This document shows positions 15,835-38,637 of a DNA stretch of 64,000 bases, piece by piece. Below the pieces are notes generated by a model. It saw only the letters and a program-made list of their open reading frames with translations, ran no database searches and was not told the origin of the DNA. The DNA is taken from the NCBI GenBank assembly GCA_963719505.1, contig CAVRCF010000001.1:1152001-1216000 (forward strand). Reading direction: 5' to 3'. Position 1 is the first letter of the stretch. Each line of letters starts with the position of its first letter. The position numbers and the translations under genes are program-made. Source of the stretch: Halobacteriovoraceae bacterium (GTDB taxonomy: Bacteria; Bdellovibrionota; Bacteriovoracia; Bacteriovoracales; Bacteriovoracaceae).

Positions 15835-15911
<77 letters not shown>

Positions 15912-16009
15912 TTTTAAGTCATTTCAAGTACTTGCAATCATTATGTTTTAAGCCCTAAAGTCGAACCCGTAAAGGTTCGATAAACCTATGAGCTTAAAAT
16001 GAGGTTTTT

Positions 16010-17251
16010 ATGCAAGTGAGAAAAGTAAAAAACAGTGATGGGTCTGTGCGTTATCGGTACAGGTACTATGAGAAAGGTAAATTAAAGTCTGTTCTCAACA
16101 GTGACCTCCCTTATCATCCAAAAACTGATGAACAAGCAGAAGTACTAAGGAAGAGATTAGAGTCAACCTATGAGGCTGCCAAGTTAGAAACGAAGAGCCA
16201 AGAAGAATGGCACGAGAAATACTACAGCTATAACTCCCTATTTGAGACTTTCGCAAAGTACCGCAAAAAAAAAGCTAAGAACTCCTATAAAGACAAGCTT
16301 TCATATTTTAGAAACTATGTTCTTCTCTACTTTTTAGAAATCCAAAAGCTTGAGAATCTTGAGACCTGGAAAGAAAGGCGGTACGACTTCGTATTGTGGC
16401 TAAGAGAAAGAGATAAGATGCGAGGAGAAGGTAAATTAGCTTCTCAGACTATCAATCATATAATCACAGAGTTTAATGTATTTATTGATTTAATGGCTCA
16501 GACAGGCAAAATAGAAGCTCCTTTTACTATAAATTTACTGCACAAGGATGAACTCAACAAAAGAGGAGCTGAGGCGGTCCTTTCCGATGAAGAAAGTGAA
16601 CTTCTTTTAGAGGAGCTAGCAAAATTTGATGTAAAAAGCTCTGAAATCTTCAGGGTGCTTCTAAATACAGGTATGAGATACAACGAATTGTTAAGCCTTG
16701 AGAGATCTAGTATTAAAAAGGGTGAAATCCCCGAAAAATCACTGACCAAAGCACTCAACTACGGAATGGCTAATAAAACAATGTATTGTTATATTGTTCT
16801 AAGCTCTCAAATAGATAAATCCACAGGTAAAAGAAAGCCTCTTAAGTCAAAGAAGCAAATCTCTATCGCTGACTCAAGGTTTGTTCCTATTTATGATAAA
16901 GAAACATTCAATATTTTAGTTAGGGCCTTAAAAGAATCTAAAGCTAAAGAAGAAGAAACTTTATTTCACTACTTTTACAAGTATTCTCGATTAAATAGAG
17001 CTTTGAAGAAAGCTTATGATCAAATTGGTCAGTACACAAAAAAGTATTCTTATAAGTCTTCTCACTCTGCAAGGCACACGTATGCTACTTATTTATCTCA
17101 AATTGATCCATCATCTTATTTAGCGACGACTATCTTAGGGCATAACTATCAAACATCGGCTCGGTATAATCACACTCACGCAATATTAATGAAAAAGCTA
17201 ATTAATGAAGCTAATACGGTTGATATAGATGACTGGGAAGAAGTTGCATGA
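16010..17251 (+). CDS. Tyrosine recombinase / integrase
   Basis: TGMRYNEL, HSARHTYAT, LGH...Y catalytic residues; adjacent to attL. Confidence 0.93.
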   Translation: MQVRKVKNSDGSVRYRYRYYEKGKLKSVLNSDLPYHPKTDEQAEVLRKRLESTYEAAKLETKSQEEWHEKYYSYNSLFETFAKYRKKKAKNSYKDKLSYFRNYVLLYFLEIQKLENLETWKERRYDFVLWLRERDKMRGEGKLASQTINHIITEFNVFIDLMAQTGKIEAPFTINLLHKDELNKRGAEAVLSDEESELLLEELAKFDVKSSEIFRVLLNTGMRYNELLSLERSSIKKGEIPEKSLTKALNYGMANKTMYCYIVLSSQIDKSTGKRKPLKSKKQISIADSRFVPIYDKETFNILVRALKESKAKEEETLFHYFYKYSRLNRALKKAYDQIGQYTKKYSYKSSHSARHTYATYLSQIDPSSYLATTILGHNYQTSARYNHTHAILMKKLINEANTVDIDDWEEVA

Positions 17252-17520
17252 CAATTACGCAAGCTAAAATTAAAGAATATAACGCAGATCTAATTAGAGT
17301 TAGAAATACAAGGCGCGATAGGTTTTTGGATACTTACCCAGACTACAAGAGCTTCTATCATTTTTTAATAAAGAAAGGTGATTCAAACATATGTTTTCGC
17401 ATTTTGACGGAGTTTATAGATAGAGATCTTAAAAATTTCCATTCCCCCAATTTTGAAGATTGGATATTTGAAGTAATAGCCAAAGAAGCAGAAAATCTTT
17501 TTTGTCTACCTTACTTTTGA
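17248..17520 (+). CDS. Hypothetical protein coupled to the integrase
   Basis: ATGA overlap with the integrase stop. Confidence 0.6.
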   Translation: MTITQAKIKEYNADLIRVRNTRRDRFLDTYPDYKSFYHFLIKKGDSNICFRILTEFIDRDLKNFHSPNFEDWIFEVIAKEAENLFCLPYF

Positions 17521-17680
17521 GATCGTAACTAGTTTTAGAAAATTTAGTCGAAAATTATGACACCTTATTAATGTCTGGACCCGGAATTATTAACTCTTAA
17601 GCCTTCTTGGAATAATTAAGAGATCTTAACTCATGGCAAATTCAACAATGACGATAAGGGATAGTGACCAAGGAGAATCT

Positions 17681-18052
17681 ATGAAGTTTTTGTTATTGAA
17701 CATTATTTTAATGACATCGTTTAATTTGATGGCCTGTAGGGTTAGAGTTACTAATGGAGTAACGAATGAATCTAAAACATTTCAAGCTACTAAATTTCCT
17801 TTCAAACTAAGTTTAGGAAACTCTAATTGGGTCTGTTTTTTAGATAAAGGTACTTATTCGAAGGAAAGCTATTATGGATTTAAATGTTCCATAGGGTCCA
17901 ATGCATCCTTTCTTTCTTCAACTATTGATAAACATAGTAGCGACTATATAAGTTCGATTCTTGTAGAGAAAAATCCAAAAACTCAATTTGTTATAGAAGC
18001 AGATAGATGTGACTTGAAAAAATCAAAAACAAAAAAGAGTCCTGCCTCATAA
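17681..18052 (+). CDS. Small secreted Cys-containing protein (paralog of 18191)
   Basis: AAGGAG RBS, signal peptide, AC-x-V...FPF...W-x-C pattern. Confidence 0.75.
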   Translation: MKFLLLNIILMTSFNLMACRVRVTNGVTNESKTFQATKFPFKLSLGNSNWVCFLDKGTYSKESYYGFKCSIGSNASFLSSTIDKHSSDYISSILVEKNPKTQFVIEADRCDLKKSKTKKSPAS

Positions 18053-18190
18053 GAAATGATTCTTAAACTCTTTAATGATTAAAGTTCATGCTGTTAAACT
18101 CTCTCAGGAAAAGTGTAAAACAGGATTAGATGATAAAGATTTGTGTGAAATTATTTAATAGTAAGATTAGTTTAATTAAAAGGATGATTT

Positions 18191-18529
18191 ATGAAAAATT
18201 TATTATTAGGGATATGTTTCTTCGGTTCATTTTACTCTTATGCCTGTCAAGTTGAAATAAAAAATTTAAATAATACTAATGACGTTATAAAAAGTAAGGT
18301 GGACAGCTATCCCTTCAATATATCTCTTCCTGGTACAAAATGGACTTGTGCAATTATGAAGTCTCCTGGGGAGCCCATTTATTACCAAACTTTATGCACT
18401 ATTGGTGATGAATATAGTGTCATATCTACAGCTGTTCATCGAGAAACAAAGTTCGCAGAAATTGGTCTTGCTGAAAAAAAGACAAAGAAAATGTACCAAA
18501 TTTTACTAAAAGAGTGTCATGTAAATTGA
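18191..18529 (+). CDS. Small secreted Cys-containing protein (paralog of 17681)
   Basis: AAGGA RBS, signal peptide, ACQV...YPF...WTC. Confidence 0.75.
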   Translation: MKNLLLGICFFGSFYSYACQVEIKNLNNTNDVIKSKVDSYPFNISLPGTKWTCAIMKSPGEPIYYQTLCTIGDEYSVISTAVHRETKFAEIGLAEKKTKKMYQILLKECHVN

Positions 18530-18532
18530 GGA

Positions 18533-18560
18533 CGTAGCCACTACGATTGTAATGGCTACG
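18533..18560. terminator. Hairpin between convergent genes
   Basis: CGTAGCCA...TGGCTACG inverted repeat. Confidence 0.55.
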
Positions 18561-18603
18561 AGAGATTAATTAATCCTTAGAGTTTGAGAGAACTTAAGAT
18601 GAA

Positions 18604-19101: not shown

Positions 19102-19719
19102 TTAGTACGGCGATCGAATAGTATTCAGAAAGGAAATATACTCCAAGATAATTCTAACTTCTCTTTTAAAGGTCCTACTAAAATCGTTCAGCTTTTGAAG
19201 ATCTAAAAAGCGTTCATGATATATATCTATTGCTTTATGAAAAGCTTCTGAATGAGGTGTTCCTCCGTTCTTGAGAAGATCAATAAGTGACCTTTCCTTA
19301 CTGTACATTTTTACATTATGCTTCTTATCGATTCTGTAATCTTCTATACCGATTAACTTGGATCGACCTACTCTAGTAGCAATAAATAGGTCATTCTCGG
19401 TCAGGGTTGAGTTTCTCGGAATATCAACAGAAAGGGGGCTGGGGAATTGCTCTCCCAATCCGTGATAATATAGCGAGGAAGTACCAGACACAACAGCATT
19501 AGGGTGAGTCTTAGCTAAAGCGATTAGATTCTCGTTGGCCGGGTTATGTATATCTTCGCCTACAATATAGAGACCTCTGCTTATCTGCTTCAAAACTCCG
19601 GCCTTTTTAAAACGTGATATTTCTGTTCTATTACCTAGAAGCTTCAATAGCTCTTTAGTTGAGTACATCTCGCCTTCGTGTCGTTTTAAAAAATCAGTAT
19701 ATTTCTTAGATTTAAGCAT
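19102..19719 (-). CDS. AbiEi-like (type IV TA antitoxin) wHTH transcriptional regulator
   Basis: GVLKQISRGLY, VVSGTSSLYYHGL, YSKERSLID motifs; TACAAT 6 nt before ATG 19719 suggests a leaderless mRNA. Confidence 0.8.
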   Translation of the reverse strand: MLKSKKYTDFLKRHEGEMYSTKELLKLLGNRTEISRFKKAGVLKQISRGLYIVGEDIHNPANENLIALAKTHPNAVVSGTSSLYYHGLGEQFPSPLSVDIPRNSTLTENDLFIATRVGRSKLIGIEDYRIDKKHNVKMYSKERSLIDLLKNGGTPHSEAFHKAIDIYHERFLDLQKLNDFSRTFKREVRIILEYISFLNTIRSPY

Positions 19720-19993
19720 TGTTATATTGTACACCACTTATTGTATTATTGGTATAGAATGTAACAAAGCCAAAGAAGAAAAGGGATATATCACCACAAG
19801 TGATTGATTTTACTCGGTTTCTCATACCAACATCCCTTAACCACTATACCGATGGTTTTTCAAAAAATTGCAGATATATCGAAAATAGCCTATAATGAGC
19901 CATATAGTGCATCTTGTAACAAGCTGATCACTTACTTGCGTTTATGCTTACGATAGCTTGGCGAGGCTAATAAGGTATTATTAGAGGATATTT

Positions 19994-20778: not shown

Positions 20779-21393
20779 TTAAGACGATTTCCTCAAAAAC
20801 AGTTCTCTCATGGTTTTCTTTTCGTCGACATGAGAATAATTCTGGACCATTTTTAAACTCATCTTTAAAGTTTGAGCTATCTGTAAATCTGATAGATTCG
20901 AATTCAGAAGAAGTGAAACGTTACTATGTCTGAGACTATGTAGATCTAGGTCATCGCCTAGGTCTTTCCTTATACATCTGTAACAGAGGTTTCTAGAGAT
21001 TCGGCCATCTTTATTCTTGAAGATAAACTCCTGAGGTTTAAGCCTCTTAAAGATTCTTTCCAGTAAAGGGTTTATAGATGGATCAATAGTAATATATCTC
21101 TCAGTATCAAAGTCCTTTTTCTTCTTTAGAACCTTCATCTTTGCTGTGTAGAACCCATCCTCTAAAACGAAGTCTTTCTTCTTTAAAGATAGGGATTCAG
21201 AGATTCGTGCCCCTGAGCAGTAGATAACTGAATAAAGAAGCCTAAAAATTTCATCGATTTCCTCGTCTTGAATAAGAGTATCTAAGAAAGCACTCAGCTT
21301 AGAATCTTTGACAACACAGACCTTTTTACCTTTAGAAGAGGTTGCTCTAACGGATTCGTAGAAAAAGTCTTTATATCTGTCATTAATTTCCAT
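20779..21393 (-). CDS. Small tyrosine recombinase (catalytic domain only)
   Basis: GARISESLSL, HSLRH, C-terminal Y (VQNYSH); AGGAG RBS. Confidence 0.88.
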   Translation of the reverse strand: MEINDRYKDFFYESVRATSSKGKKVCVVKDSKLSAFLDTLIQDEEIDEIFRLLYSVIYCSGARISESLSLKKKDFVLEDGFYTAKMKVLKKKKDFDTERYITIDPSINPLLERIFKRLKPQEFIFKNKDGRISRNLCYRCIRKDLGDDLDLHSLRHSNVSLLLNSNLSDLQIAQTLKMSLKMVQNYSHVDEKKTMRELFLRKSS

Positions 21394-21576: not shown

Positions 21577-21855
21577 TTATTCGTTTAAGGCAAGGTTTTC
21601 TAAATCTCTCTGAACATATTCTAGATTTTGCTCAGCTATTTCGAATGTAATAGTATTTTCTAACTCTCTCTCTATAGATTCTCTCAAACTCGGTCCAACT
21701 TTTCCGCTCTCGTATTCTTTTTGATAATAAGCTTCTTTATCGAACTCACTCATAGTAAAGTGCTTGTATTCAGCAAGTGTTTCTATATACTGCTCAACTA
21801 CTTTGTTTTCGTACCTGTCTCTTTTAATATTTTCATACTCTTGCATATCCAACAA
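21577..21855 (-). CDS. Hypothetical acidic protein
   Basis: ORF overlapping the upstream gene end. Confidence 0.55.
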   Translation of the reverse strand: MLDMQEYENIKRDRYENKVVEQYIETLAEYKHFTMSEFDKEAYYQKEYESGKVGPSLRESIERELENTITFEIAEQNLEYVQRDLENLALNE

Positions 21856-22519
21856 ATCTCTTGAATTGTCGAAAAACTCTTTCGAGTAACGGCTCTGTTT
21901 CTATGTTTTCAGCTACAACATTATAAAACACATCCCTATTTCGTTCGTCGTCAATCACTCTCAACATCTCTCGGCCAATATCCGTGAAATTTTCTCTGAC
22001 TACTTTGTCTTCATTCGCTAGAAGCTTAAGGGCTTCTACTATCTTTGGTTCTAGTTTTTTCGAAAAGGGATTGTAAACGGCGTACTCATTGACTAGCGCT
22101 TCAGACAAAAGCGAAAAGTTGTTTAAAATAAATTTGAAGGATTTTATATCTAGGCTTTTTAGTTTGTGAAGAAGGGTTGGGTGCCTTTCTTTAAGGAGCT
22201 TTGAAAATTTCTCCAGATTCTTTTTTGAGAGAGGAAGCATAGAGACAATACTGTCGAAAAGCTTGTTAGTGATGTCATTTACGAATGTTTCTTCTTCAAT
22301 TTTTTTAGCTGTCTTCTTTTTATCTTTAGCTTTAGTTTTAGCTTTTTTATTAAGCTTCTTGCTAGTTTTTTTACTATCTATAACTTCTTTCTTAGTTATC
22401 TGTGTATTTCCAGATTTATCATTGAAATGGTAGTATGCTCCACCAAAACAAAGAACGGTAACGATTAAAGAAATTCCAATTGCTCCAATTATAATACTAA
22501 TTATTATTCTTAACATCAT
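21833..22519 (-). CDS. Membrane-anchored protein with Lys-rich linker
   Basis: N-terminal TM helix, KKAKTKAKDKKK linker, AAGGAG RBS. Confidence 0.7.
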   Translation of the reverse strand: MMLRIIISIIIGAIGISLIVTVLCFGGAYYHFNDKSGNTQITKKEVIDSKKTSKKLNKKAKTKAKDKKKTAKKIEEETFVNDITNKLFDSIVSMLPLSKKNLEKFSKLLKERHPTLLHKLKSLDIKSFKFILNNFSLLSEALVNEYAVYNPFSKKLEPKIVEALKLLANEDKVVRENFTDIGREMLRVIDDERNRDVFYNVVAENIETEPLLERVFRQFKRFVGYARV

Positions 22520-22593
22520 CCTTCTCCTTGTTGTTTTTCATTTAATATACCTTTCCTGCTTATCTACTTACTCTCTTGTTGTGTTTTCAAATC

Positions 22594-23781
22594 CTAAAAC
22601 TTAGAGATCAGCTGAGCTGTTCCATTTGGATAGATAATTACAATTGAAACCGTCCAAGAAGATGCCCCGCCCCTGGCATAGTTTTGCTTCGAGATATCAG
22701 TTAAATGACCTACGGAGAAGTTCTCTCCTGAATATCCCCCAGCGTGATTATGACCTGTACACGATTTTGGTATGTATTTCTCAGCTGATCTATAATTAAA
22801 GCGAGCCCCGTTACTGCCTTTGTGACCATGGAGACTCATTTCGAACCCACACTCTTGAACCGGAGTATCATCCATAAAATTAATGTTTCTGTTTATTTTA
22901 TGGTATTTTTTCAGTGCTATTTCTATAGTAGGAACTGACTGATTAAGAGATAATGTATTTCTCATAAGTTCTGCTTTTAACTCATGAAGAATAATTTTAT
23001 CAATTTCTGCCGCCTTTCTAAACTTCTCGTCGTCTTTTAGAAAGCGATCTAAAAAGTCATCATGATTTGACTCAACGATATTGAGTGTTTTAAATTTAGA
23101 AGAAATCTTATTAAGAGTTTTGGCTAGGGAAGCAAGTTCTTTTTCTAATGAAACCCCATAAGCTATCTTATTTGTTATATACATAGAGGAGTTAACCTCG
23201 TGCGGGTTTAAACTGATGCCGTCGAAGACATCTCCAACATAAATATTCTTAACTCCTACTTTTTGAGCGTAGTTAGTTGCCCAAGCTAACGATTTCTTAT
23301 CATGAGTAAATTCGTGTAGATCTCCGAACAGACAAGCTTTTGCGTTGCCTTTTTTCCATCCATTCTTTGTAAATAATATTCCGTTATCATAGACTTTATT
23401 GTCTCTTTGAGTGAGATTTCTGATTTCAAACTTAGTATCGTTTTTAACCGAGACTAATAGGGCATATGGCCCAACACCTAAACCAACCATAGCTCTTGTC
23501 GATCTGTTTACTGTCGGTATATGACTTAAGTAGTTCTTATTAGATGACATATAGATAGCGCTGGACCCTTGAGATGCTCTACAGGCAGCCATTTCGCTGA
23601 TCTGAGCACAAGGAAAGACAACAAGATTCTTATTAAACTCTATAGTTACGTACTTATTCTTATTGTTCTTAACAAGTAAGCAGAGCTTAGCCTTATATCT
23701 CTTCTTGATCTGAGCTAAAATCTCAGAACTAAATTCACCAAGGTTCTCTTCTCGAATAATAATATAGTTGGTTGCCTTCAT
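22594..23781 (-). CDS. Calcineurin-like metallophosphoesterase, phage T5 A1-like
   Basis: GDLH, GDVFD, SNHD, HGHKGSNGAR, GHNH, Y..G.SSW...IIYPNG. Confidence 0.75.
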   Translation of the reverse strand: MKATNYIIIREENLGEFSSEILAQIKKRYKAKLCLLVKNNKNKYVTIEFNKNLVVFPCAQISEMAACRASQGSSAIYMSSNKNYLSHIPTVNRSTRAMVGLGVGPYALLVSVKNDTKFEIRNLTQRDNKVYDNGILFTKNGWKKGNAKACLFGDLHEFTHDKKSLAWATNYAQKVGVKNIYVGDVFDGISLNPHEVNSSMYITNKIAYGVSLEKELASLAKTLNKISSKFKTLNIVESNHDDFLDRFLKDDEKFRKAAEIDKIILHELKAELMRNTLSLNQSVPTIEIALKKYHKINRNINFMDDTPVQECGFEMSLHGHKGSNGARFNYRSAEKYIPKSCTGHNHAGGYSGENFSVGHLTDISKQNYARGGASSWTVSIVIIYPNGTAQLISKF

Positions 23782-23790
23782 AGCTCCCCC

Positions 23791-24321
23791 TTAAGCCGCC
23801 AGCTTCGTTGATGCTTTTTTTTGTTTCTTGTTCTCTCTTGCTCTTTTATTATTTTCTGCACTTGTGACAACTTCCAAGTTCTCGGCTCTATTATCTGACC
23901 TAATCTTATTACCGTGATCAACTTGGCATTTGGTGCCCAAAATTAGACCAGTAAAGCATTCGATCATTAATCTATGCACATACATGTTATTCGATTTTCC
24001 TTTACCGATTCCATGGGTAATGTAGCGATATTCATTAGGCTTAGCGGTTAGCTTTCTCTTTTTCCTGGGACCAAATACTTCACCTTTGATATTTATCGAG
24101 AGTGGCAAGTATGGGTGAGCTATCAATTTCTCTTTGAAATTCTTCTTTTTAAACGCCTTAGCCTTAGCAATAGCTTCTTTGAATTTCTTATTGACTAAAT
24201 CAATCTTCTCGACGCCAATCGGTGTCATCGTCTGAGCTTTGATCTTTCTGTCGTTCATCATTTTTTGTGTTTGTGTCATTTTCTTTGCTTTTGCTTTCAT
24301 CTTCTTTGCTTTTGTTTTCAT
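23791..24321 (-). CDS. HNH endonuclease (homing-type) with Lys-rich N-terminus
   Basis: YVHRLMIECF, VDHGNKIRSDNRAENLEVVTSAENN. Confidence 0.88.
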   Translation of the reverse strand: MKTKAKKMKAKAKKMTQTQKMMNDRKIKAQTMTPIGVEKIDLVNKKFKEAIAKAKAFKKKNFKEKLIAHPYLPLSINIKGEVFGPRKKRKLTAKPNEYRYITHGIGKGKSNNMYVHRLMIECFTGLILGTKCQVDHGNKIRSDNRAENLEVVTSAENNKRARENKKQKKASTKLAA

Positions 24322-24675: not shown

Positions 24676-24698
24676 ATTAAATCACTTCGGAGAGACTC

Positions 24699-24827: not shown

Positions 24828-24893
24828 ACCAAGCGAGGCCCTCTTGAATCTAAAAGGTATATTAAGCAAAACAACAACAACAAGGAGAGGATA

Positions 24894-25388
24894 ATGGAGA
24901 AAGAATTCAACACTACTGTAGAAGACAAGTTTAGAGACGCTCAAAACCTGTTTAAGCAACAACTAAGGAGTAACAACAAGGCTGAGAAAGCTATTGGTCT
25001 AGTATTTTTCTCCCTAACTACTTCGTGGACTCTAGTCCTTATTCATAGCTATCTCTTTTCTACTTATTTCGATAAAAGCTTTAAGGATCTTTATATTCTA
25101 ACTGTTTTCATCTCCATACTTTTTTCTGGAGGCTTGGATTATTCCCTATTTGCTCTCTTCAGATTTACAACGAGCAAAGTGGTATTAATCGTCAATATCG
25201 TACTTTTCTCATATCTATATTATGTAGTTGGAACTCATTCGCTTTTAATTGGACTGGCTATCAACATTGCTCTTCTGTTTTATAGATTCTTAGCACCCAG
25301 TAAGTACTTGATGTTCAGTAATGAATTTATAGATGAGCAGCAAGCTAACCTTAATATCAAATCAACAGATTTATGTAAAAGACACTAG
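24894..25388 (+). CDS. Multi-pass membrane protein
   Basis: About four TM segments, AAGGAGAGG RBS. Confidence 0.75.
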   Translation: MEKEFNTTVEDKFRDAQNLFKQQLRSNNKAEKAIGLVFFSLTTSWTLVLIHSYLFSTYFDKSFKDLYILTVFISILFSGGLDYSLFALFRFTTSKVVLIVNIVLFSYLYYVVGTHSLLIGLAINIALLFYRFLAPSKYLMFSNEFIDEQQANLNIKSTDLCKRH

Positions 25389-25397
25389 GAGGTCATA

Positions 25398-28940: not shown

Positions 28941-29123
28941 TGTTCATTCAAGTGTCCATTTAGCTGTTCATATCTGTCCAATCCAGATTGAACGGCCGTT
29001 CATTTCAAATTCTAAATTGCTGTAATTACATGAGAATGAACACTTAACAGGTGAAATGAACAGGTTTCAGAGAATATTTGTGTGTGACGGAATATATTGA
29101 TAATTATCGATATATTTTGAACA
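28941..29123. repeat. TGT(T/C)CA direct/inverted repeat array
   Basis: Direct copies at 28941, 28953, 28965, 28975; palindrome TGAACGGCCGTTCA at 28989-29002; inverted TGAACA at 29037, 29057, 29118. Confidence 0.65.
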
Positions 29124-30013: not shown

Positions 30014-30288
30014 AAAAGCGACCACCAATAAATTTTATATAAAAAAGCGACCACCAATAAATTTTATATAAAAAAGCGACCACCATTAAATTGTTTAAAA
30101 GCGACCACCTCAAGTGTTTGAAATATCGATCAGGTGATCCATTTTAAAAAGCGACCACTAGTTTTGCTAAGTATTTGATACTACATAAAAGCGACCACCT
30201 TTAATTGGATCTGGTCCGAAAAAAGGACGTAAATAGCCGTAAATATGCTGGATTAGGTGGTCTCACTAATAATTAATAAAAGCGACCA
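30014..30288 (+). repeat. Iteron-like array AAAAGCGACCA(CC) x7
   Basis: Copies at 30014, 30043, 30072, 30097, 30147, 30187, 30278; inverted GGTGGTC at 30256; IHF consensus at 30168-30180. Confidence 0.9.
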
Positions 30289-30304
30289 TTAAGAAGAAAT
30301 CTTA

Positions 30305-30904: not shown

Positions 30905-31459
30905 CTAAGCTACAGAACGTTGCCATTCCTCATCTTCGTCATCAAAGTGAGAATCAAGTAAAGTCCCTCTGTAAAAAAGCTCAGGAAAAGCATCCACAAC
31001 GGAATCGATCTCCTCAATTGTAGTGTCTAGGGCAATGATCATGTGATTCAAATCCATTTCAGTCTGTAGTAGCTGGAAAATTTGTCTTTGTTTCGAATTC
31101 AAACGACTAAGGCCTTCTACTGGTATCTCGACAGCTACATCTTTAAACTGTACTGAAGAGAGCGGTGGAACTATCCCTGTTGTTATTGCTATCCTGGAAT
31201 CCCAATCAATGATTCTTTTTATAGCTTCTTCATTAATTAAACTGTTAATAGAAGCGGTGATATGAGTTTCGAGATCAGATTCTTCCGAATCCCAAGTTCT
31301 CAAGCCTAGCCAAATAGCGATATTTCCTAATTGTGAAACTTCTTCTCGATAGAAAGAGTCCTCAATCATAATTGAGTCAGCAATTTTCTGAATCAACGGT
31401 CTAAATTTAGCTAATTGGTTTTTAAAAGTCTCTTTTTCGCTTTTCTTTGAGTTTTTCAC
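30905..31459 (-). CDS. Degenerate sigma-70-family-like protein
   Basis: FRPLIQKIA...EEVSQLGNIAIWLGLRTWD...LETHITASI resembles region 2; LSRLNSKQRQIFQL resembles the start of region 4; GGAG RBS plus GTG. Confidence 0.6.
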   Translation of the reverse strand: MKNSKKSEKETFKNQLAKFRPLIQKIADSIMIEDSFYREEVSQLGNIAIWLGLRTWDSEESDLETHITASINSLINEEAIKRIIDWDSRIAITTGIVPPLSSVQFKDVAVEIPVEGLSRLNSKQRQIFQLLQTEMDLNHMIIALDTTIEEIDSVVDAFPELFYRGTLLDSHFDDEDEEWQRSVA

Positions 31460-31943: not shown

Positions 31944-33125
31944 TTACGCTACTAATTTGTAGCTAGAATCTATATCGTAAAGAGCTCTCATTGTATCTAC
32001 CATTATGATGTATAATTCGTCTCGATGCTGCTTTTTTACGATTATCGAATCATGTACAGTCAGACAAGCGATCTCTTTACTATTTAGCACCTTTATACAC
32101 TCTATCATGATGCTAGAATCTTCTTTCTGTAGTCTAGTTCCTTCTTGTCTGTAGAAGAACTCAGAAATGGCTTTATGCTTATCTTCAATCGCTGCAACAA
32201 GAGCTACAACCTTCTTTCTAACCCTCTTTAGGTTAAATTCATCAAATCCTTCTTGAAGCTTATTAAAAATCGAATTCACAGCAACCCCGTAAGATTTAGA
32301 ATTTAACATTATTAAAAGGGCTATTTTGATATCATCTCTCGAGAATCCATGGATGTTATAAATATCTTCAGGTCTTTTAACATCCTTTGCTAGATACAGA
32401 AGGGTTGGGTGCAGAGCTTTAAAATCGATTTCTACCGTTGCTTCGTTGTCAAATGTGATCGTTTCTCTTTCGGATTTTGATAAATTCGTGCAGCTATTAT
32501 AGATTCGGCCGCCTAAATTCAAATCGGAAGAACTATAGACAATGCTGAGTTCCAGAGAACATAAAGGCCTGAAGGCTGTATCAATGATAGTGTTGTTTAG
32601 AAGCTCTACGTGTTTGCTCATTATCGAGTCTCGGTACTGGATCTCAGTTTTTTTATCAGCATCTATTTGGACTTGGACCTTAGTCTTTATACCTTTTTTG
32701 GATTTGTCTTTTTCCTGAGCCCGGGCTCCTCTCCAAATCACCGTCCTAACTAACACCTTATCTATCTCATCCTTATTTTCAGCAAATATCTTTTCGAGTT
32801 TCTGGGTACGCTTTATTCTTGTTGGTATCTTTTGCTTCTCACTTACTGAATGCATCACTAGAGTCACATAGGCATTATTATGAAGCCACTCTATAATAGG
32901 CGATACTGTATACTGATTAAAACTTAATGTCCTGAATTTAGACACTCCAACCAATTCATGCTCGAGATAAAGATTGATTAAAGTTAAGTGAAGGAAATCG
33001 CGGTGCTTATGCCCTCTAAGCTTTTTACCTAAAGATTTGATGTATTCATCGTAAATCAAATCTGTAACTATCCCTGAAAAAGGCTTGATATAATCTCTGA
33101 ATTTCTTGTAATCAACTTGATACAT
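31944..33125 (-). CDS. Stand-alone family-A polymerase-like palm-domain protein
   Basis: GGRIY; motif A EIDFKALHP; motif B-like RDDIK; LQKEDS; motif C TVHDSII; GGAGAG RBS before ATG 33125. Confidence 0.7.
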   Translation of the reverse strand: MYQVDYKKFRDYIKPFSGIVTDLIYDEYIKSLGKKLRGHKHRDFLHLTLINLYLEHELVGVSKFRTLSFNQYTVSPIIEWLHNNAYVTLVMHSVSEKQKIPTRIKRTQKLEKIFAENKDEIDKVLVRTVIWRGARAQEKDKSKKGIKTKVQVQIDADKKTEIQYRDSIMSKHVELLNNTIIDTAFRPLCSLELSIVYSSSDLNLGGRIYNSCTNLSKSERETITFDNEATVEIDFKALHPTLLYLAKDVKRPEDIYNIHGFSRDDIKIALLIMLNSKSYGVAVNSIFNKLQEGFDEFNLKRVRKKVVALVAAIEDKHKAISEFFYRQEGTRLQKEDSSIMIECIKVLNSKEIACLTVHDSIIVKKQHRDELYIIMVDTMRALYDIDSSYKLVA

Positions 33126-33413
33126 TATTCTCTCCATTTGAAGTTTCAAAAAATGTTGAAACTTGGCCATAGCTCCATTATACCTTCGAAGATTTTTTCT
33201 CTCGATGCCCCATAAACATTGGTCTTCAGAGTCTTTTTAAGTGATTGATTTCCCTTCCTTAAATTACAAAGTGTCAAATAGCTGAACAGCTTCACCATTC
33301 AAAGTGTTTAGTTTGAATACAAAGCCTTGAGCTCTGAGTTTTTGATTATTTTCGTCTCGAACTAAAAAGGTATATTTACAGAAACAGAGAAGAAAGAAAC
33401 AAAAGGAGTTCAG

Positions 33414-33905
33414 ATGAGGTTGATATGTATGATAATTTTATTTTTTGCTAGTTTAGAGGTTTTTTGCCAAAGCCATATTGTGAGGCAAGGTGAGAAACTT
33501 GAAAACATTGTTTCTGAGAGATCCGGGCTTAGTGGATATGATCTGATTCTTGAGGTAGGTAGAATTTCTGCTCTCAATGAGCTTGGCAACCCTCATCATA
33601 TTGAACCTGGCCAGATTATCTCGTTCGATCCTGAAGAAAAATCAAAGAGAACTATTAAAACGATCGTTAAAAAAGTCTATATCGTCACCCCAGAAAAACT
33701 AAACACCCTTTCAACTTCATTCGGTCTATCTCGAACCCAAGCTAACTGGAGGGTCGATGCAAATCAAAGAGATGTGAATATAAGTTATGAGTGGGAAACA
33801 AATGTTCGTCTTAATTACATACGTCATTTTAAAAATTCTGACTTCAATGCTGGAGGTTATATCGGAAACTCTGAATTTGGAGCATCTATCGGTTGGGATT
33901 TCTAA
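33414..33905 (+). CDS. LysM-domain exported protein with C-terminal beta-signal
   Basis: HIVRQGEKLENI...LNELGNPHHIEPGQII; ends FGASIGWDF. Confidence 0.75.
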   Translation: MRLICMIILFFASLEVFCQSHIVRQGEKLENIVSERSGLSGYDLILEVGRISALNELGNPHHIEPGQIISFDPEEKSKRTIKTIVKKVYIVTPEKLNTLSTSFGLSRTQANWRVDANQRDVNISYEWETNVRLNYIRHFKNSDFNAGGYIGNSEFGASIGWDF

Positions 33906-33970
33906 TAAAGGTATATTTTACTTGTGAATAATACACGCACAATGCCTGAGTAGGCAAAGAGAGGTTTTTT

Positions 33971-34636
33971 ATGTTTAAGTTATTGAAAAAGGGAATCAAG
34001 ATTATTGTTCTAACTGTCATCGCACTGATTTTAGGTTTTAAAATGTGCTCCGGTCCAGACAAAGAAGTTATTAAAAAAACACCACAACCAGAAGAATCAT
34101 TGTCTTTTAAGATTCCCAAAAGCTTGGTTGGTAAGCAAATTTATACATGCGATATTCAATCTTTGTACAATGTAGAAGTGACTGCTGAATGTGCATGTAC
34201 TCAAAGCGAGTGCAATTTCAAAGTTAAGCCTATCGATTTGTTTTGGAGTGCTGATTTAAAATTAAATATTGGAGATGGAAATACAATCTATCGCTCTTAC
34301 AAAAGAGATAGGGATTATTCAGGAAGTTGTACTGGATCTAGTTTTAGCGGGTGCGATAATTGGGAAAAAAGAAAAGAAGAAGTTATAGATAGTAAAGAAA
34401 CTATTCATAAACTAAAAGTTAATAGATGGATTGAAAGATATGCACAGAGAGAAAAAGAGAAAACCTGTGAAATTTCTGAGCAAATCAACGCTGAAGTGAC
34501 TACTGAATGTGCATGTACCAAAACAGAGTGTCTTGTCGGGATCACTCCAACGTATGATAAATGGGATGTAGAGCTCAAAATCAGTACCAAAGATAAAAAG
34601 CCCAAGTTCTACCGATTACATTCAAAAAGAAAATAA
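33971..34636 (+). CDS. Membrane-anchored Cys-rich protein with internal duplication
   Basis: TC..EVT.ECACT..EC motif occurs twice. Confidence 0.7.
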   Translation: MFKLLKKGIKIIVLTVIALILGFKMCSGPDKEVIKKTPQPEESLSFKIPKSLVGKQIYTCDIQSLYNVEVTAECACTQSECNFKVKPIDLFWSADLKLNIGDGNTIYRSYKRDRDYSGSCTGSSFSGCDNWEKRKEEVIDSKETIHKLKVNRWIERYAQREKEKTCEISEQINAEVTTECACTKTECLVGITPTYDKWDVELKISTKDKKPKFYRLHSKRK

Positions 34637-34697
34637 AGAGCACGTCTTAAATAAATTGTATTAGGCCCTACGGGGCTTAATTCCTTAAGGAGGAAAG

Positions 34698-35951
34698 ATG
34701 AAAAAAATATTTTTTTTACTATTAACAATATCTAGTTTGATCTCGTGTAGCAAAAAGGAAGACACGAAATTAGTTGATGCATTCGACATTCCACCAGTTA
34801 AGCAAACTAATAATACGCCTGTGAGTTCTAATGATTCAGTTCTAACGAGGTTCAATAGAGTTTATAATGACTCTCTACAAGCTTCTGATAGCGATTCTGA
34901 CCCACTTGTGTATTCATTGGTGACTAATGCCTCAAATGGAGTTGTTGTAATTACAGATAGCTCTTCAGGCTCTTATACATATACTCCCAATACTGGTCAT
35001 GTAGGAGCTGATAGTTTTGAGTTTAAAGTAAACGATGGAACAGAAGACTCTAACACTTCTCTTGTGAACATTGACGTTAAAAACCCCGAAACAATCTATG
35101 TCGGCACTAGCAATGGACTATCAATTTCTACTGATGGCGGTTTAACTTTTGTAAATAGACTGGAGACTTTAGATGTTAAAGATATTCAAATAACGGAGTC
35201 GGGCGATATCTATGTCGGAACAAACTTCGACATTTATATTTCTACTGATGGAGGTTCAACCTTTACTTCAAGATACTATGGTAGTGATGATTTCGTTAGT
35301 ATGTATATTGACAGCTCAGGCGCTATCTTTGTTGCGACAGACTGGGAACTGCTAAAGTCTACAAATAACGGACTGTCATTCAATTCTTTACTCTCTTCTT
35401 CATTGTTACAATCGGTAGATGGCGATGATTCAGGAAATATTTATGTTAGTTATGAGCTCTTTGGTTTTTCTATCTCTACTGATGGAGGAAGCAACTTTAC
35501 TAATTATTCAACAGCAAATGGACTTGGAAGTGATGATTTGTTTTCTTCTTTTGTAGATACTAACGGAACAATCTATGCATCAACCTTTAACGGTTTATCA
35601 ATTTCGACTGATGGAGGAAGTAACTTTACTAACTATACAACTGTAAATGGACTTGGAAGTGATGATTTGTTTTCTTCTTTTGTAGATACTAACGGAACAA
35701 TCTATGCATCAACCTTTAACGGTTTATCAATTTCGACTGATGGAGGAAGTAACTTTACTAACTATACAACTGTAAATGGACTTGGATCTAATCAAATAAC
35801 TTCAGTTTTTGCTGATGGCTTTGGTGGTGTTTACGTAGGAACTGTTAATAGTTTCAATATATCATTCGATAGTGGAGAGACTTTCATTAATTTAACAACA
35901 GCTGCCGGTTTAGCCGGTAATGGCGTCAGTGAATTAGTAGTAATAGAGTAG
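34698..35951 (+). CDS. Lipoprotein with Ig/cadherin-like domain and Asp-box (BNR) beta-propeller repeats
   Basis: Lipobox LISC; YTYTPN..G.DSFEFKVNDG; repeated STDGG.F. Confidence 0.85.
   Translation: MKKIFFLLLTISSLISCSKKEDTKLVDAFDIPPVKQTNNTPVSSNDSVLTRFNRVYNDSLQASDSDSDPLVYSLVTNASNGVVVITDSSSGSYTYTPNTGHVGADSFEFKVNDGTEDSNTSLVNIDVKNPETIYVGTSNGLSISTDGGLTFVNRLETLDVKDIQITESGDIYVGTNFDIYISTDGGSTFTSRYYGSDDFVSMYIDSSGAIFVATDWELLKSTNNGLSFNSLLSSSLLQSVDGDDSGNIYVSYELFGFSISTDGGSNFTNYSTANGLGSDDLFSSFVDTNGTIYASTFNGLSISTDGGSNFTNYTTVNGLGSDDLFSSFVDTNGTIYASTFNGLSISTDGGSNFTNYTTVNGLGSNQITSVFADGFGGVYVGTVNSFNISFDSGETFINLTTAAGLAGNGVSELVVIE
35516..35786 (+). repeat. Exact 129-bp intragenic tandem duplication
   Basis: AAATGGACTTGGA... 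recurs at 35516, 35645, 35774 with identical intervening sequence. Confidence 0.9.
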
Positions 35952-35974
35952 AAGTGTAAATTTCCAGATTTGAT

Positions 35975-36341: not shown

Positions 36342-37010
36342 ATGAAACTCGTTTTCATTTCGGACACTCATTCTAAACATCGTGAGCTAGGCAAGCTTGC
36401 TGGAGACATCCTTATTCACTCGGGTGACTTCACCACGAAGGGAGAACTAGAACAAGTTATAGACTTCGTTGATTATCTCTCCAGTTTAGAATTTAAAAAC
36501 ATCATAGTCATCTCCGGTAATCATGATTTCTGCATGGAATCAAATAGCGATATTAGAGAAGAGTGTGAAAAGATATTTAAAGATGCGGGAATAATATATC
36601 TCAATGATAGTGGAGTTACGATAGAAGGCCTTAAGTTTTTTGGATCTCCAGTATCTCCGCATTTTGCAGGATGGGGGTTCGAAAAGACTCGCGGTACTGA
36701 TATTAAGAAGCATTGGGATTTAATACCAGCTGATACTGATATTCTAATAACTCATGGTCCAGCGTTCGGTCTTTTAGACAGAACTCTCGACGGAACAAAC
36801 GTAGGCTGTGAGGACCTCAGAGAGCGTATTCACGAAATTAAGCCCTTAATCCATGGTTGCGGCCATATACATGAAGCATACGGCGAATTGGAGTCTGAGG
36901 GGACATTGTTTATAAACGCTTCTTCCTTAGATATTTTTTATCGCTGTATAAATGATCCAATCGTCGTTGATCTTAAAAAAGACAAGGACGGAAAATACTC
37001 ATACAGATAG
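36342..37010 (+). CDS. Metallophosphoesterase (MPPED/239FB-like)
   Basis: SDTH, HSGD, GNHD, THGP, GHIHE. Confidence 0.92.
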   Translation: MKLVFISDTHSKHRELGKLAGDILIHSGDFTTKGELEQVIDFVDYLSSLEFKNIIVISGNHDFCMESNSDIREECEKIFKDAGIIYLNDSGVTIEGLKFFGSPVSPHFAGWGFEKTRGTDIKKHWDLIPADTDILITHGPAFGLLDRTLDGTNVGCEDLRERIHEIKPLIHGCGHIHEAYGELESEGTLFINASSLDIFYRCINDPIVVDLKKDKDGKYSYR

Positions 37011-37051
37011 TAACGACTAGCAAAGAAATAGATTTAACAACTCTGATAGGA

Positions 37052-37285
37052 ATGACTGTCACGGTGAGTGATGAACATGAAAAGTTAACCACTGACGAGA
37101 AAACTGAAATCGTAATACTTTTAAGGGAAATTGGTCATATGTATGACTTTGCTGAAGAGGGGACCGAAATAGTTACCAAGATCTATGAAGATATTTACTT
37201 CTCTTATATTAAAATATCTCAAAACTCTGATATTTCCAAAGGTGAACTAAATATGCTAATTTCTAAGCTTGCTTCAGTTAAGTAG
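37052..37285 (+). CDS. Hypothetical protein
   Basis: 77-aa ORF. Confidence 0.5.
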   Translation: MTVTVSDEHEKLTTDEKTEIVILLREIGHMYDFAEEGTEIVTKIYEDIYFSYIKISQNSDISKGELNMLISKLASVK

Positions 37286-37305
37286 TTCCACTAAACTTGA
37301 GCAAC

Positions 37306-37701
37306 CTATTTATCTTCACTAGATATAGTCTGAATCTTATCGATATTCATTAATAATATAAGCTCTATATTAAAGCTCTGATGTACAAGGCAACGGAACT
37401 CCTCAAATGAATCTGAGTGTTTGATGGCAAAATCAATAAGTGTCTGATTATCTGGTCTTTTGAGACATGTATTGATGGTTAATCCGTCAGACTTAATGAT
37501 ATGTAAAATCCCTCGCATAAATTTAGGGAAATAACCTTCTCCACAGTATTCCAATACAAGTTTGTATTCATCGGTATTCAGAACATCTGCAATCGCTTCC
37601 CTGGATAGGGAAGTGTAAAAATTCAAAATATTTGAGATGTCTAAAGCTTTATTGTAAGCCTGGTTATTGTAAAAAAGCTCACCTTGATCATATAGTTTCA
37701 T
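37306..37701 (-). CDS. Hypothetical protein (paralog of 37688)
   Basis: GGAGG RBS before MKLYDQ; ILNFY motif shared with neighbour. Confidence 0.7.
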   Translation of the reverse strand: MKLYDQGELFYNNQAYNKALDISNILNFYTSLSREAIADVLNTDEYKLVLEYCGEGYFPKFMRGILHIIKSDGLTINTCLKRPDNQTLIDFAIKHSDSFEEFRCLVHQSFNIELILLMNIDKIQTISSEDK

Positions 37702-38086
37702 GACTCTTATCCTCCGAATTTTTTGTAATAAATGTTTTAAGTACATCTACAAAAGCAAAAGCTAACAGAACTCGGAATGATGCAAAGGACTTAGAATTTT
37801 TCGCACAGTAATCCACAATCATATCTTTTGTTTTGTTAGACAAAGTCGTTTCTGTCTTAGCTCCGTCATCTGTAATGATTGTTATTAGCCCTTTGTAGTG
37901 AATTATCTGGAAGTGACCATACATTTCAAGTAACTCCTCTCCAACTGATTTATTCAATTCATCTACTATTGTTTCGTTTGTTGTAGGGATTGGCATATAG
38001 AAATTGAGGACTATAACTTTATCTGCCGCAGCGGATATGTTTCCGTTGTCATAATCTTCCTTTGCTTGATTATACAATATTTGCAT
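37688..38086 (-). CDS. Hypothetical protein (paralog of 37306)
   Basis: AAGGA RBS before MQILYNQ; VLNFY motif. Confidence 0.7.
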   Translation of the reverse strand: MQILYNQAKEDYDNGNISAAADKVIVLNFYMPIPTTNETIVDELNKSVGEELLEMYGHFQIIHYKGLITIITDDGAKTETTLSNKTKDMIVDYCAKNSKSFASFRVLLAFAFVDVLKTFITKNSEDKSHETI

Positions 38087-38609
38087 CAGCTTTTTCCTTG
38101 TTATATTGTGTGCAAAATTCACTTTACAATATAGATTGTAACACACTGCGCTGGAGTTTGCAACGCTTCTTGTCAGATTTATAGTTTTCAACCTCCAAAA
38201 ATTCAAAAAACCTCATAAAATTACTAAATACCTAAATTTATCCTCATAAAACTCATCAAAATCTCTAAATACCCTAATAAAGATATTTCAAACTCTCTTG
38301 ATGCCTTGCTGTAGGAGCTCTCAGTCTATCTGGTTTTTTTCTGTGCGGTATAATTAGAGCTATGGGCAAGATTTGAAGAATTTCTTCAGAGTTCTGAAAG
38401 TCTGTATTGGATTACTAATGCTGATCTCAATCATTGGAAGAGATCAAAAGGCCAAGGATGGTCAATATCCAATCAAAAACTCAAAGCAAACTAGCAATTT
38501 AGTCCGGCATTGTTAGAGCTATGGCCAAGATTTGAAGGTTTTATAAGTCCCTAAAAACCCACTTTATTGACACTTTAATGAGTAAAATCTATTATTTAGG
38601 CAACTTTAG

Positions 38610-38637
38610 GGTTCGAATCCTGCTGGTTGCGCCATTT
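38610..38637 (+). repeat. attR core (duplicated tRNA-Arg 3' end)
   Basis: Identical to 15887-15914. Confidence 0.97.

Follow-up and report, generated by a model that had tools for sequence, protein, structure and literature searches.

A 22.7-kb island at a tRNA-Arg gene of a Halobacteriovoraceae bacterium is probably an integrative element of the TV-Pol type

Polymerases of the TV-Pol family are defined by a thumb, a β-hairpin with an absolutely conserved arginine, a palm with two aspartates, and fingers with an aspartate and an RxxxK motif (PMC2579912; for all papers cited by accession, our statements refer to the excerpts used). A subset of them with an N-terminal all-helical domain adjoins a γδ resolvase, a λ-type integrase or a transposase, and these neighborhoods were proposed in 2008 to be novel replicative mobile elements (Iyer, Abhiman & Aravind, PMC2579912). 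CCPol of SCCmec is a member of this family—with its small partner protein MP, CCPol acts as a primase–polymerase that starts at the putative origin of the element, and, according to the excerpts of PMC7581432, no other TV-Pol has been characterized biochemically. [quoted passage not shown] Here, we describe an island of 22,723 bp in the genome of a Halobacteriovoraceae bacterium (assembly GCA_963719505.1), located in a stretch of 64,000 nucleotides (the window: contig CAVRCF010000001.1, positions 1,152,001 to 1,216,000) whose own numbering is used throughout.

We read this island, at a probability of about 0.55, as an integrative island of the TV-Pol type with a tyrosine integrase, 28-bp att sites in tRNA-Arg and a winged-helix-fused family-A mini-polymerase. 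A sequence-only reading of the same DNA had named perfect att repeats at tRNA-Arg, an intact integrase, a polymerase-palm protein, a 7-copy iteron-like array, a shared promoter motif, a gene for a transmembrane (TM)-FtsK-nuclease-helix-turn-helix (HTH) protein preceded by membrane proteins, and the lack of capsid, terminase, relaxase and VirB4 genes, and all of these are borne out by the searches described below. Its overall view of an integrative replicating element with its own regulon stands as regards the att-bounded island, the PolA-type enzyme, the repeat array, the TM-FtsK-nuclease-HTH operon and the element-specific promoter motif; its proposal of a new class does not stand, as the polymerase carries the TV-Pol motifs and elements combining TV-Pol with an integrase or resolvase were predicted in 2008 (PMC2579912). 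Given this prediction and CCPol–MP as a proven primase–polymerase, the backbone of the island is of a known kind.

The island is bounded by two perfect direct repeats of 28 nt, the first of which starts in the 3' end of the tRNA gene:

15835..15911, + strand: tRNA-Arg (anticodon TCT), the integration target (ARAGORN; Rfam tRNA 73.8 bits)
15887..15914, + strand: attL, a perfect 28-nt repeat in which the final 25 nt of the tRNA are followed by TTT
16010..17251, + strand: tyrosine integrase, 413 aa, intact (PF00589 Phage_integrase 9.2e-10; phrog_1 2e-25)
38354-38378 and 38513-38537, + strand: a 25-nt repeat present twice on the inner side of attR, the copies being 159 nt apart (2 matches, 0.00 expected)
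38610..38637, + strand: attR, the second perfect 28-nt copy, 22,723 bp from attL

The 25-nt repeats may be arm-type recombinase or excisionase sites. The tRNA was the sole match of an Rfam scan. Between the att sites, 28 open reading frames (ORFs) were scanned against Pfam, PHROGs, NCBIfam and PADLOC at a threshold of E≤0.01, and 13 of these 28 are without a match in all four libraries. None of the 28 ORFs was identified by Pfam, PHROGs or NCBIfam as a gene for a capsid, portal, tail or terminase protein, nor as one for VirB4, a relaxase or a coupling protein. The one "terminase" row comes from the FtsK domain, by a P-loop match of 22 bits, and was rejected as a terminase gene. Throughout the host assembly (3.69 Mb, 83.5% complete), PF03135 and PF03432 gave 0 matches, in a genome-wide search that did not extend to other relaxase families.

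The evidence that carries the TV-Pol reading is the polymerase itself:

31944..33170, - strand: TV-Pol-type enzyme, 408 aa (phrog_4756, of unknown function, 7.8e-44)

This protein joins a MarR-like winged helix (residues ~19-145) to a minimal family-A polymerase core (~170-408) that is devoid of an exonuclease domain. Pfam holds no model that matches it, a PDB sequence search with the single 408-aa protein gave 0 matches, and a PDB search with the TV-Pol profile yielded weak PadR/MarR matches (E 0.012-0.25). Structure prediction was more informative when based on an alignment, with an AlphaFold model of pLDDT (predicted local distance difference test) 83 against an unusable single-sequence model of pLDDT 30. 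At the top of the Foldseek matches of this model in the PDB stand nothing but DNA polymerases of family A and mitochondrial RNA polymerases (apPol, E 1.4e-4). In VIA-align, residues 145-408 superpose with a Z score of 13.5 on apPol (9qsc; root-mean-square deviation 3.4, 223 residues aligned), of 12.9 on T7 RNAP, Pol nu and Klenow, and of 12.2 on T7 DNAP, while residues 19-166 reach Z 8.5 to 6.5 with MarR-type winged helices.

The family is very large, as an exhaustive HMMER search at E≤1e-3 found homologues in 4636 representative clusters. In an alignment of 74 sequences—the query and 73 near-full-length sequences chosen among the 150 matches listed—G221, R222, R235, E247, D249, Y271, K282 and H373 are invariant, and D269, R278, N290, D374 and S375 are each present in ≥90% of the sequences. 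These positions correspond to the defining features of TV-Pol: the conserved β-hairpin arginine is R222, which sits with G221 between the model strands E209-212 and E220-224; the palm aspartates are D249, which is invariant, and D374 (in H373-D374-S375); and the fingers carry D269 and R278...K282. The fold comparison adds the minimal family-A core without exonuclease, and the island provides the recombinase neighborhood by its integrase and a second, short recombinase. By motifs, fold, architecture and context, rather than by comparison with the founding members (CCPol, Sputnik V13, Ma-LMM01), the 408-aa protein belongs to the TV-Pol family.

The genomic surroundings of its homologues point in the same direction. 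The TV-Pol profile matches 7 of 301 genomes of the phylum, and each of the five further contexts that we read is mobile DNA, with a resolvase and/or an integrase no more than 8 kb away. L016 holds a recombinase of 204 aa, an integrase of 411 aa and SAVED/AAA genes; in L017, the polymerase start is overlapped by the stop of an integrase gene; L018 has two integrases and AAA_25; L019 has AAA_25, a resolvase and an integrase; and L015 has a resolvase with Cap15. Homologues were also found by tblastn in 235 phage records, mostly of 120-140-kb Vibrio, Rheinheimera and Aeromonas phages; in two such neighborhoods nearly all genes are annotated "hypothetical protein." Full-length look-alikes of ~430 aa exist in BFVD for Aeromonas and Rheinheimera phages (TM score 0.6-0.7).

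Two further sequence features of the island are an array of repeats, which is a candidate origin, and a palindrome:

30015..30289, + strand: iteron-like array in which AT-rich spacers separate 7 direct copies of AAAGCGACCA(C/T)
29091..29116, no strand: near-perfect 26-nt palindrome AATATATTGATAATTATCGATATATT, arms 94% complementary

The first copies of the array start 29, 29 and 25 nt apart. Its motif AAAGCGACCA(C/T) has 8 matches in the window against 0.58 expected, and the exact iteron 13-mer occurs five times in the 3.69-Mb genome, every time within the array. Flanked by minus-strand genes and 1.65 kb from the polymerase gene, the array is our best origin candidate—a putative origin or protein-loading site. 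The palindrome is located in a 420-nt spacer after the M48-like gene described below. The dif-like site of the sequence-only reading, for which no coordinates had been given, does not rise above chance: the E. coli-type dif pattern has 0 matches at ≤3 mismatches in window and genome, the XerD-arm half-site has 5 matches against 5.15 expected, and the best two-arm dif score in the window (15/22) lies within the maxima of 30 shuffles (15-17).

The second recombinase is a short protein:

20779..21393, - strand: Xer-like short tyrosine recombinase, 204 aa, catalytic domain only (PF00589 7.2e-11)

It matches the XerA/XerD models of NCBIfam at 4e-12 to 6e-11, far under their cut-offs. Homologues adjoin TV-Pol in L016 (204 aa) and occur in the Bdellovibrio genome G280 (189 aa, E 5.3e-24); the protein would serve in multimer resolution or accessory recombination.

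The island further appears to possess its own regulon. This is indicated by a promoter-like motif and a small sigma-like gene:

22544-22555, - strand: AAAGGTATATT, precedes the gene after A1
24374-24385, - strand: AAAGGTATATT, precedes the HNH gene
24523, + strand: GGTATATT, a variant of the promoter-like motif
24852..24863, + strand: AAAGGTATATT, precedes the first membrane-protein gene of the FtsK operon
30905..31459, - strand: small sigma-70-like protein, 184 aa (NCBIfam NF005248 sigma-70, E 0.0024)
31505-31516, - strand: AAAGGTATATT, precedes the sigma-like gene
33365-33376, + strand: AAAGGTATATT, precedes the first exported-protein gene
33906-33917, + strand: AAAGGTATATT, precedes the second exported-protein gene

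With at most one mismatch allowed, the window contains AAAGGTATATT 9 times, where 1.17 matches are expected; six of these sites lie in the island, all on the coding strand and 25-55 nt before a start codon with a Shine-Dalgarno sequence. For the sigma-like gene, the earlier claim is backed by the NCBIfam match and by the language-model (Atlas) neighbors of the protein, 20 of 30 of which are Sigma70_r2 clusters (score 0.96), many from phages; it is not backed by the PDB or by tblastn against phage records, both of which gave no match. A scan for sigma-70-type promoters between 20500 and 38700 counted 47 sites against 62.7 expected from shuffles (standard deviation 8.4) and was rated uninformative; such a shortfall fits an island that is transcribed mainly from its own promoter type. 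Terminators were found at the expected frequency (9 against 9.4).

Two of the units behind these promoters encode a putative nuclease set and exported proteins, respectively:

21577..24321, - strand: HNH/A1-like operon as a whole
23791-24321, - strand: HNH endonuclease at the operon start (HNH_3 2.3e-12)
22594-23781, - strand: T5 A1-like metallophosphoesterase (phrog_1745 "DNA transfer protein" 1.8e-50)
21833-22519, - strand: TM/coiled-coil protein
21577-21855, - strand: 92-aa protein
33414..35951, + strand: operon of three exported proteins of 163 aa, 221 aa and 417 aa

The 221-aa exported protein has Cys-rich repeats, and the 417-aa protein is lipoprotein-like with Big_9/BNR-type repeats. 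Within the gene of the latter, three 129-nt tandem repeats (100/93/67%) at 35463-35849 suggest a fast-varying surface protein.

Homologues of the A1-like protein occur in phages as well, with tblastn matches in 1118 phage records, several of which are annotated "protein A1" or "A1-like." Moreover, in G026, a genome of the same family, a TV-Pol gene of 402 aa has an A1-like gene of 750 aa as its divergent neighbor (L006, G026:C104:150000-169999, ~12121-15983). Around this pair are a dNMP kinase gene in pieces, an exonuclease of the RNase_T type, two rve transposases, and a tyrosine recombinase whose catalytic domain is matched in part; the whole looks like a decayed, phage-derived region. These phage ties would suit a phage satellite or phage-derived island that excises and replicates by itself and is packaged and spread by a helper phage, which the A1-like and HNH proteins, the phage-type sigma factor and the FtsK-Mrr nuclease might hinder or exploit. 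The phage clusters among the Atlas neighbors of the sigma-like protein agree with such a lifestyle, and the size of the island, its combination of integrase, replication module and repeats, and the lack of virion genes match the general plan of satellites. We nevertheless consider a satellite unlikely. PHROGs and Pfam, in which satellite markers are poorly covered, revealed no small terminase, capsid-size redirector, Sid/Psu/Delta, P4 alpha-type or phage-inducible chromosomal island (PICI) pri-rep protein; no cos/pac site and no helper phage are known; and none of 82 pattern matches for the FtsK-Mrr protein in IMG/VR was confirmed as a relative.

A third unit of the regulon encodes an unusual FtsK protein together with membrane proteins and a peptidase:

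24894..25868, + strand: small membrane proteins without family match, one of 164 aa with 4 hydrophobic segments and one of 156 aa with 2
25868..28465, + strand: TM-FtsK/HerA ATPase-Mrr nuclease-HTH protein, 865 aa from ATG (ORF open from TTG 25811)
28462..28875, + strand: small M48-like metallopeptidase with HExxH (Peptidase_M48 6.3e-6)

The stop of the second membrane-protein gene overlaps ATG 25868 (TAATG), which is the likely start of the FtsK gene, and the FtsK stop codon is in turn overlapped by the start of the M48-like gene. From N- to C-terminus, the protein shows a hydrophobic segment, FtsK_SpoIIIE at 225-366 (2.2e-7; phrog_1358 2e-21), Mrr_cat at 685-820 (3.1e-12), and HTH_38 at 847-880 (4.9e-5). 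Walker A/B and the Mrr D...QxK motif are conserved in all four aligned homologues. PADLOC matches to mad8 (7e-18) and SspH (2.7e-13) cover residues 231-429, the ATPase part only, and Atlas neighbors score at most 0.84 and are taken as leads only.

As far as the databases searched can tell, the FtsK-Mrr fusion is rare. It is present in 2 of the 301 phylum genomes, and a single relative was confirmed among 300 pattern matches in a species-representative scan. A word-indexed search covering 5.8 billion proteins gave three matches among the 8000 candidates scored—an identical 506-aa piece of the protein itself, and two proteins, of 1130 aa and 966 aa, that also combine FtsK with Mrr. In PLSDB, 181 records match the ATPase only and none covers at least 80% of the protein; a metagenome search confirmed 125 relatives, and of the 80 retained, 4 reach past the ATPase domain.

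One relative resides in G280, where the same region encodes homologues of the window integrase (E 4.1e-41; 29% identity over 427 aa) and of the short recombinase, two phosphoesterases and a free-standing Mrr protein. The gene directly upstream of the fusion is that of a membrane protein with 7 segments, and an M48 peptidase gene lies downstream. Instead of TV-Pol, this region bears a divergent primase and a VapE/D5-type helicase—a kind of non-homologous replacement that Iyer et al. took as evidence of equivalent function (PMC2579912). Att repeats and ends of the G280 element were not found. A tRNA-Asp lies 2 kb past the integrase in this region (L030/L031), and the motif GATAGCTATCAAAG occurs at four places in the element, which may be regulatory sites of its own.

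A further relative was found on metagenomic contigs, of which L033, L034 and L036 are the same sequence in three assemblies. The block order is A-X-B in L033 and B-Y-A in L034; since the 15,712 nt of L033 equal A+X+B+Y in permuted order, a circle or tandem array of ~15.7 kb is indicated. What follows block A in L034 is not block X but another 2.4 kb, so that a second junction or variant exists. The ~15.7-kb element encodes a ParA-like ATPase, a full-length Xer-like recombinase, a 1104-aa Ig/Kelch-type protein and an FtsK-Mrr homologue of 35% identity. Exported repeat or β-propeller proteins accompany FtsK-Mrr in the window, L034 and L035. Searched against the ORFs of G280 and L033-L035, the TV-Pol profile matched nothing besides the window's own protein. 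Judged by gene content, the FtsK-Mrr(-M48) module is found on three different replicon types: the window island, the G280 island and the ~15.7-kb element.

This module is what invites comparison with the integrative and conjugative elements of actinomycetes (AICEs), whose transfer protein TraB combines a TM segment, an FtsK ATPase and a C-terminal HTH. An AICE-like, self-transmissible element would use a hexamer of FtsK-Mrr-HTH that binds the iterons—as TraB binds clt—via its HTH and pumps double-stranded DNA (dsDNA) to another cell; Mrr may open the circle, and the dsDNA would exit through the two membrane proteins. The parallel in domain architecture is joined here by the translational coupling of FtsK to polytopic membrane proteins and the 7-segment membrane protein preceding it in G280, by the element-specific promoter in front of the operon, and by the fact that FtsK-Mrr alone is common to the window island, the G280 island and the circularly permuted ~15.7-kb element. 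An element of this kind also agrees with the exported proteins beside FtsK-Mrr and with the lack of type IV secretion system (T4SS) and relaxase genes from the island (library scans) and from the genome (PF03135, PF03432). The sequence-only reading had drawn this analogy, and at the level of architecture it is sound. At the level of the protein family it is not: the NCBIfam plasmid_TraB model (NF041214) gives 20.1 bits against a cut-off of 800 (E 1.9e-4, no stretch passing by itself), the best family matches are phage FtsK-like and defense ATPases, and a pump-fused nuclease has no counterpart in TraB. Furthermore, a single inner-membrane pump does not account for the crossing of four membranes, and, to our knowledge, all cases of conjugation in two-membrane bacteria use a T4SS and none is driven by an FtsK protein only. 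An AICE-like element is improbable in our view.

In the TV-Pol reading, we tentatively assign FtsK-Mrr-HTH to defense or exclusion—at somewhat less than an even chance—and regard self-transfer of the island as a clearly weaker candidate; the remaining share goes to roles that it would play alongside the A1-like and HNH nucleases, either packaging-like or in host takeover. Transfer of dsDNA by this protein, as proposed earlier, is not supported over a defense or exclusion role. The leaning toward defense is founded on the mad8/SspH matches of the ATPase and the defense cargo on the same island, on the patchy distribution (2 of 301 genomes; 1 relative in the species-representative scan), on the occurrence of the gene in three different replicon backbones, and on the fact that we know of no FtsK-only conjugation in two-membrane bacteria. 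In addition, a restriction-endonuclease (REase) domain and a HerA/FtsK ATPase reside in one protein, as in the DndFGH/SspFGH/MADS systems, and the architecture of REase, sigma-like HTH and HerA/FtsK is known for DndH variants (PMC10853773).

In a more adventurous view, the island would have arisen by integration of a replicon that is virus-like or vesicle-borne and has particle genes beyond recognition; the trio of TV-Pol, FtsK-HerA-family ATPase and integrase is the one noted for Sputnik (PMC2579912). FtsK-Mrr-HTH would then be a terminase-like machine: its HTH would find a site, its nuclease would cut the circle or concatemer, and its ATPase would pump the DNA over the inner membrane into a membrane-bounded carrier. 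This carrier would be made from the co-regulated membrane and exported proteins, and the Bdellovibrio island and the ~15.7-kb ParA element would use the same machine. The chance of this is slim; if true, it would mean DNA export in two-membrane bacteria without T4SS or a classical capsid.

Returning to the TV-Pol reading, the following sequence of events could be envisaged for the working of the island, whereby we read the anatomy and infer the steps. The integrase would excise the island as a circle. TV-Pol would find the origin via its winged helix and make primers or short DNA strands, like its SCCmec relative CCPol–MP; the unique iteron array 1.65 kb away would be the best candidate for this origin. 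Multimers would be resolved by the short Xer-like recombinase. The sigma-like factor of the island would read the AAAGGTATATT promoters and thereby switch on four units—the sigma-like gene, the HNH/A1-like operon, the membrane-protein/FtsK-Mrr-HTH/M48 operon and the exported-protein operon. Finally, TM-FtsK-Mrr-HTH would be a membrane-anchored DNA pump with a built-in nuclease, for which action on incoming or competing DNA (exclusion or defense, as with the "HerA/FtsK capture" systems) seems slightly likelier than export of the island DNA.

Several observations weigh against this scheme. No SSB/MP-like partner ORF adjoins the island polymerase, and because CCPol needs MP (PMC7581432), priming by the 408-aa protein alone is unproven; a helicase was not detected in the island with Pfam, PHROGs or NCBIfam either. 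The origin assignment is a guess, since two genes separate the array from the polymerase and comparable arrays near TV-Pol are found at 0 of 4 other loci. The sigma identity of the 184-aa protein, as judged from its sequence, is weak. Concerning defense, the FtsK operon contains no DndF/G, SspF/G or other mad partner according to PADLOC, whose matches are confined to the ATPase; an element-specific promoter and membrane proteins, in the window as well as in G280, look more like a life-cycle function; and FtsK-Mrr is the single module common to three otherwise different mobile elements. Lastly, the flanks of the island are not syntenic in relatives, where homologues of the left and right flank genes lie on separate contigs or ~90 kb apart.

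The tRNA site itself can be compared in two relatives, G001 and G004, in which tRNA-Arg(tct) adjoins the left-flank gene. Within 16 kb beside this tRNA, both are without an island homologue and without a second copy of the tRNA 3' end, which shows only that the island is absent from that site there. In the 16 kb past the tRNA (L122 of G001, L123 of G004), no ORF is in common (E<1e-8) with the 64-kb window; hence, the tRNA-Arg(tct) locus is variable across the family.

The remaining genes include two with a link to defense:

17633-18837, directly 3' of the integrase: three small ORFs (139, 112 and 77 aa) without family match
19102..19737, - strand: AbiEi-type antitoxin/regulator, cargo (PADLOC AbiEi 2.8e-28)
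20399-20692, + strand: C-terminal AbiEi fragment (PADLOC 6.2e-8)
36342..37010, + strand: metallophosphoesterase, candidate defense gene PDC-S10, cargo (PADLOC PDC-S10 1.6e-82; Metallophos 1.5e-11)
37306-38206, near attR: two adjoining minus-strand ORFs (146 and 172 aa) without family match

AbiEi and PDC-S10 are cargo; PADLOC detected no AbiEii partner of the AbiEi gene. The three ORFs behind the integrase have conserved-looking Cys pairs, and those of 139 and 77 aa have a hydrophobic N-terminal segment. The 146- and 172-aa ORFs look, by eye, like diverged paralogues.

An orphan AbiEi next to a fragmentary second one is what a decayed prophage or island would show, in which the genes no longer cooperate and which is retained for its defense cargo. 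The base composition, which equals that of the host (GC ~0.31-0.39 per kb in island and flanks alike), fits such an immobile remnant as well. Still, we hold this to be very unlikely, as the att copies are perfect, the ORFs of integrase, TV-Pol, FtsK-Mrr and short recombinase are intact, the TV-Pol catalytic residues and the Walker and Mrr motifs are present, and six promoter motifs stand in register with genes. Also speaking against decay, proteins 98-100% identical to the TV-Pol and FtsK of the island (clusters P0001, P0008, P0157) are encoded on one separate contig of 22,652 nt—71 nt below the unit length of 22,723 bp. Its gene calls are shortened (polymerase 249 aa + 121 aa, FtsK 506 aa), which suggests an indel-rich assembly. 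This contig may be the excised circle, or merely a separately assembled copy.

What is new about the island is its combination of parts: a TV-Pol island of 22.7 kb that targets a tRNA gene and unites a polymerase fused to a winged helix, unique iterons, a private sigma-type regulon, an A1-like/HNH operon and the rare TM-FtsK-Mrr-HTH/M48 module. New, too, is the recurrence of this module on Bdellovibrio-type and plasmid-like elements. The sequence-only reading had counted the lack of the same gene combination in other genomes among the findings that would speak against it, and the outcome of this check lies in between. The full set of integrase, TV-Pol, FtsK-REase and A1-like gene was found in no other searched genome, and subsets do recur—integrase, short recombinase, FtsK-Mrr and M48 in G280, TV-Pol and A1-like gene in G026. 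Among the 301 phylum genomes, G000 alone is in both the TV-Pol and the FtsK-Mrr match list.

Mobile elements of predatory bacteria are little studied, and the island might be of use in several respects. TV-Pol is a very large family (4636 representative clusters) with no Pfam model and one biochemically characterized member, and a compact, apparently intact island lets the self-sufficiency of a DNA-binding-fused TV-Pol as origin-specific primase–polymerase be tested. The private sigma-like factor and its six identical promoter motifs make up a simple switch for study. TM-FtsK-Mrr-HTH/M48, which recurs on three replicons that are unrelated and come from Bdellovibrio-like and uncultured low-GC organisms, might stand for a new membrane-based anti-DNA defense or for T4SS-free DNA export.

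Among the known systems, two familiar classes differ from the island. Integrative and conjugative or mobilizable elements with type IV secretion are set apart by the absence of VirB4, relaxase and coupling protein from the 28 ORFs of the island, and tailed prophages by the absence of major capsid, portal, large terminase and tail genes in the Pfam and PHROGs scans. With phage T5, the island shares the pre-early protein A1, to which ORF 22594-23781 is related by phrog_1745 and by phage genes annotated A1; here, this gene belongs to a chromosomal island with an island-specific promoter and an HNH neighbor, and no other T5 pre-early gene was recognized. Sputnik-type virophages have the same trio of TV-Pol, FtsK-HerA-family ATPase and integrase (PMC2579912). 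Yet, Sputnik has capsid genes, a TV-Pol–D5 helicase fusion and a small packaging ATPase, as opposed to no recognizable capsid and an 865-aa membrane ATPase in the island.

AICEs such as pSAM2, SLP1 and pMEA300 are alike in their integration into tRNA genes by a tyrosine integrase—the island has both the tRNA-targeting integrase and the att repeats—and in their own replication, a repeat locus, small membrane proteins and a single FtsK-family ATPase with a DNA-binding C-terminus in place of T4SS and relaxase. They differ in that the island is hosted by a two-membrane bacterium of the Bdellovibrio phylum, its replicase is TV-Pol, and its FtsK protein fails the TraB model and bears an Mrr nuclease. 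None of the AICE Rep types (RepSA/RepAM/prim-pol) was detected in the island with Pfam and NCBIfam.

The "HerA/FtsK capture" proteins (PMC10853773) resemble FtsK-Mrr-HTH in uniting an REase-fold nuclease, a sigma-related HTH and a HerA/FtsK ATPase in one polypeptide, and HerA/FtsK mobile operons are linked to tyrosine recombinases and primase/D5-type helicases, as in G280. Compared with what is described in the excerpts, the order here is TM-ATPase-nuclease-HTH, DndF/G or Ssp partners are absent with PADLOC matching the ATPase only, and the protein is membrane-anchored, its operon also encoding an M48 peptidase and membrane proteins.

Closest to the replication module are CCPol–MP–Cch2 of SCCmec and the TV-Pol elements of 2008. 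SCCmec likewise carries an A-family mini-polymerase on an integrative element, with a proposed role in origin priming (PMC7581432, PMC10061031). Its CCPol uses the OB-fold partner MP and the helicase Cch2, whereas in the island neither was detected and the polymerase instead has a winged helix as fusion partner; and SCCmec uses serine recombinases, while the island encodes tyrosine recombinases. The elements of 2008 share the mini-polymerase motifs, an N-terminal helical domain, a nearby λ-type integrase and the genomic-island setting (PMC2579912). As described there, they are small predicted replicative transposons with few genes. The island extends this plan to 22.7 kb with tRNA targeting and perfect att sites, and adds a sigma-like regulon, iterons, an A1-like/HNH operon and a TM-FtsK-Mrr-HTH operon.

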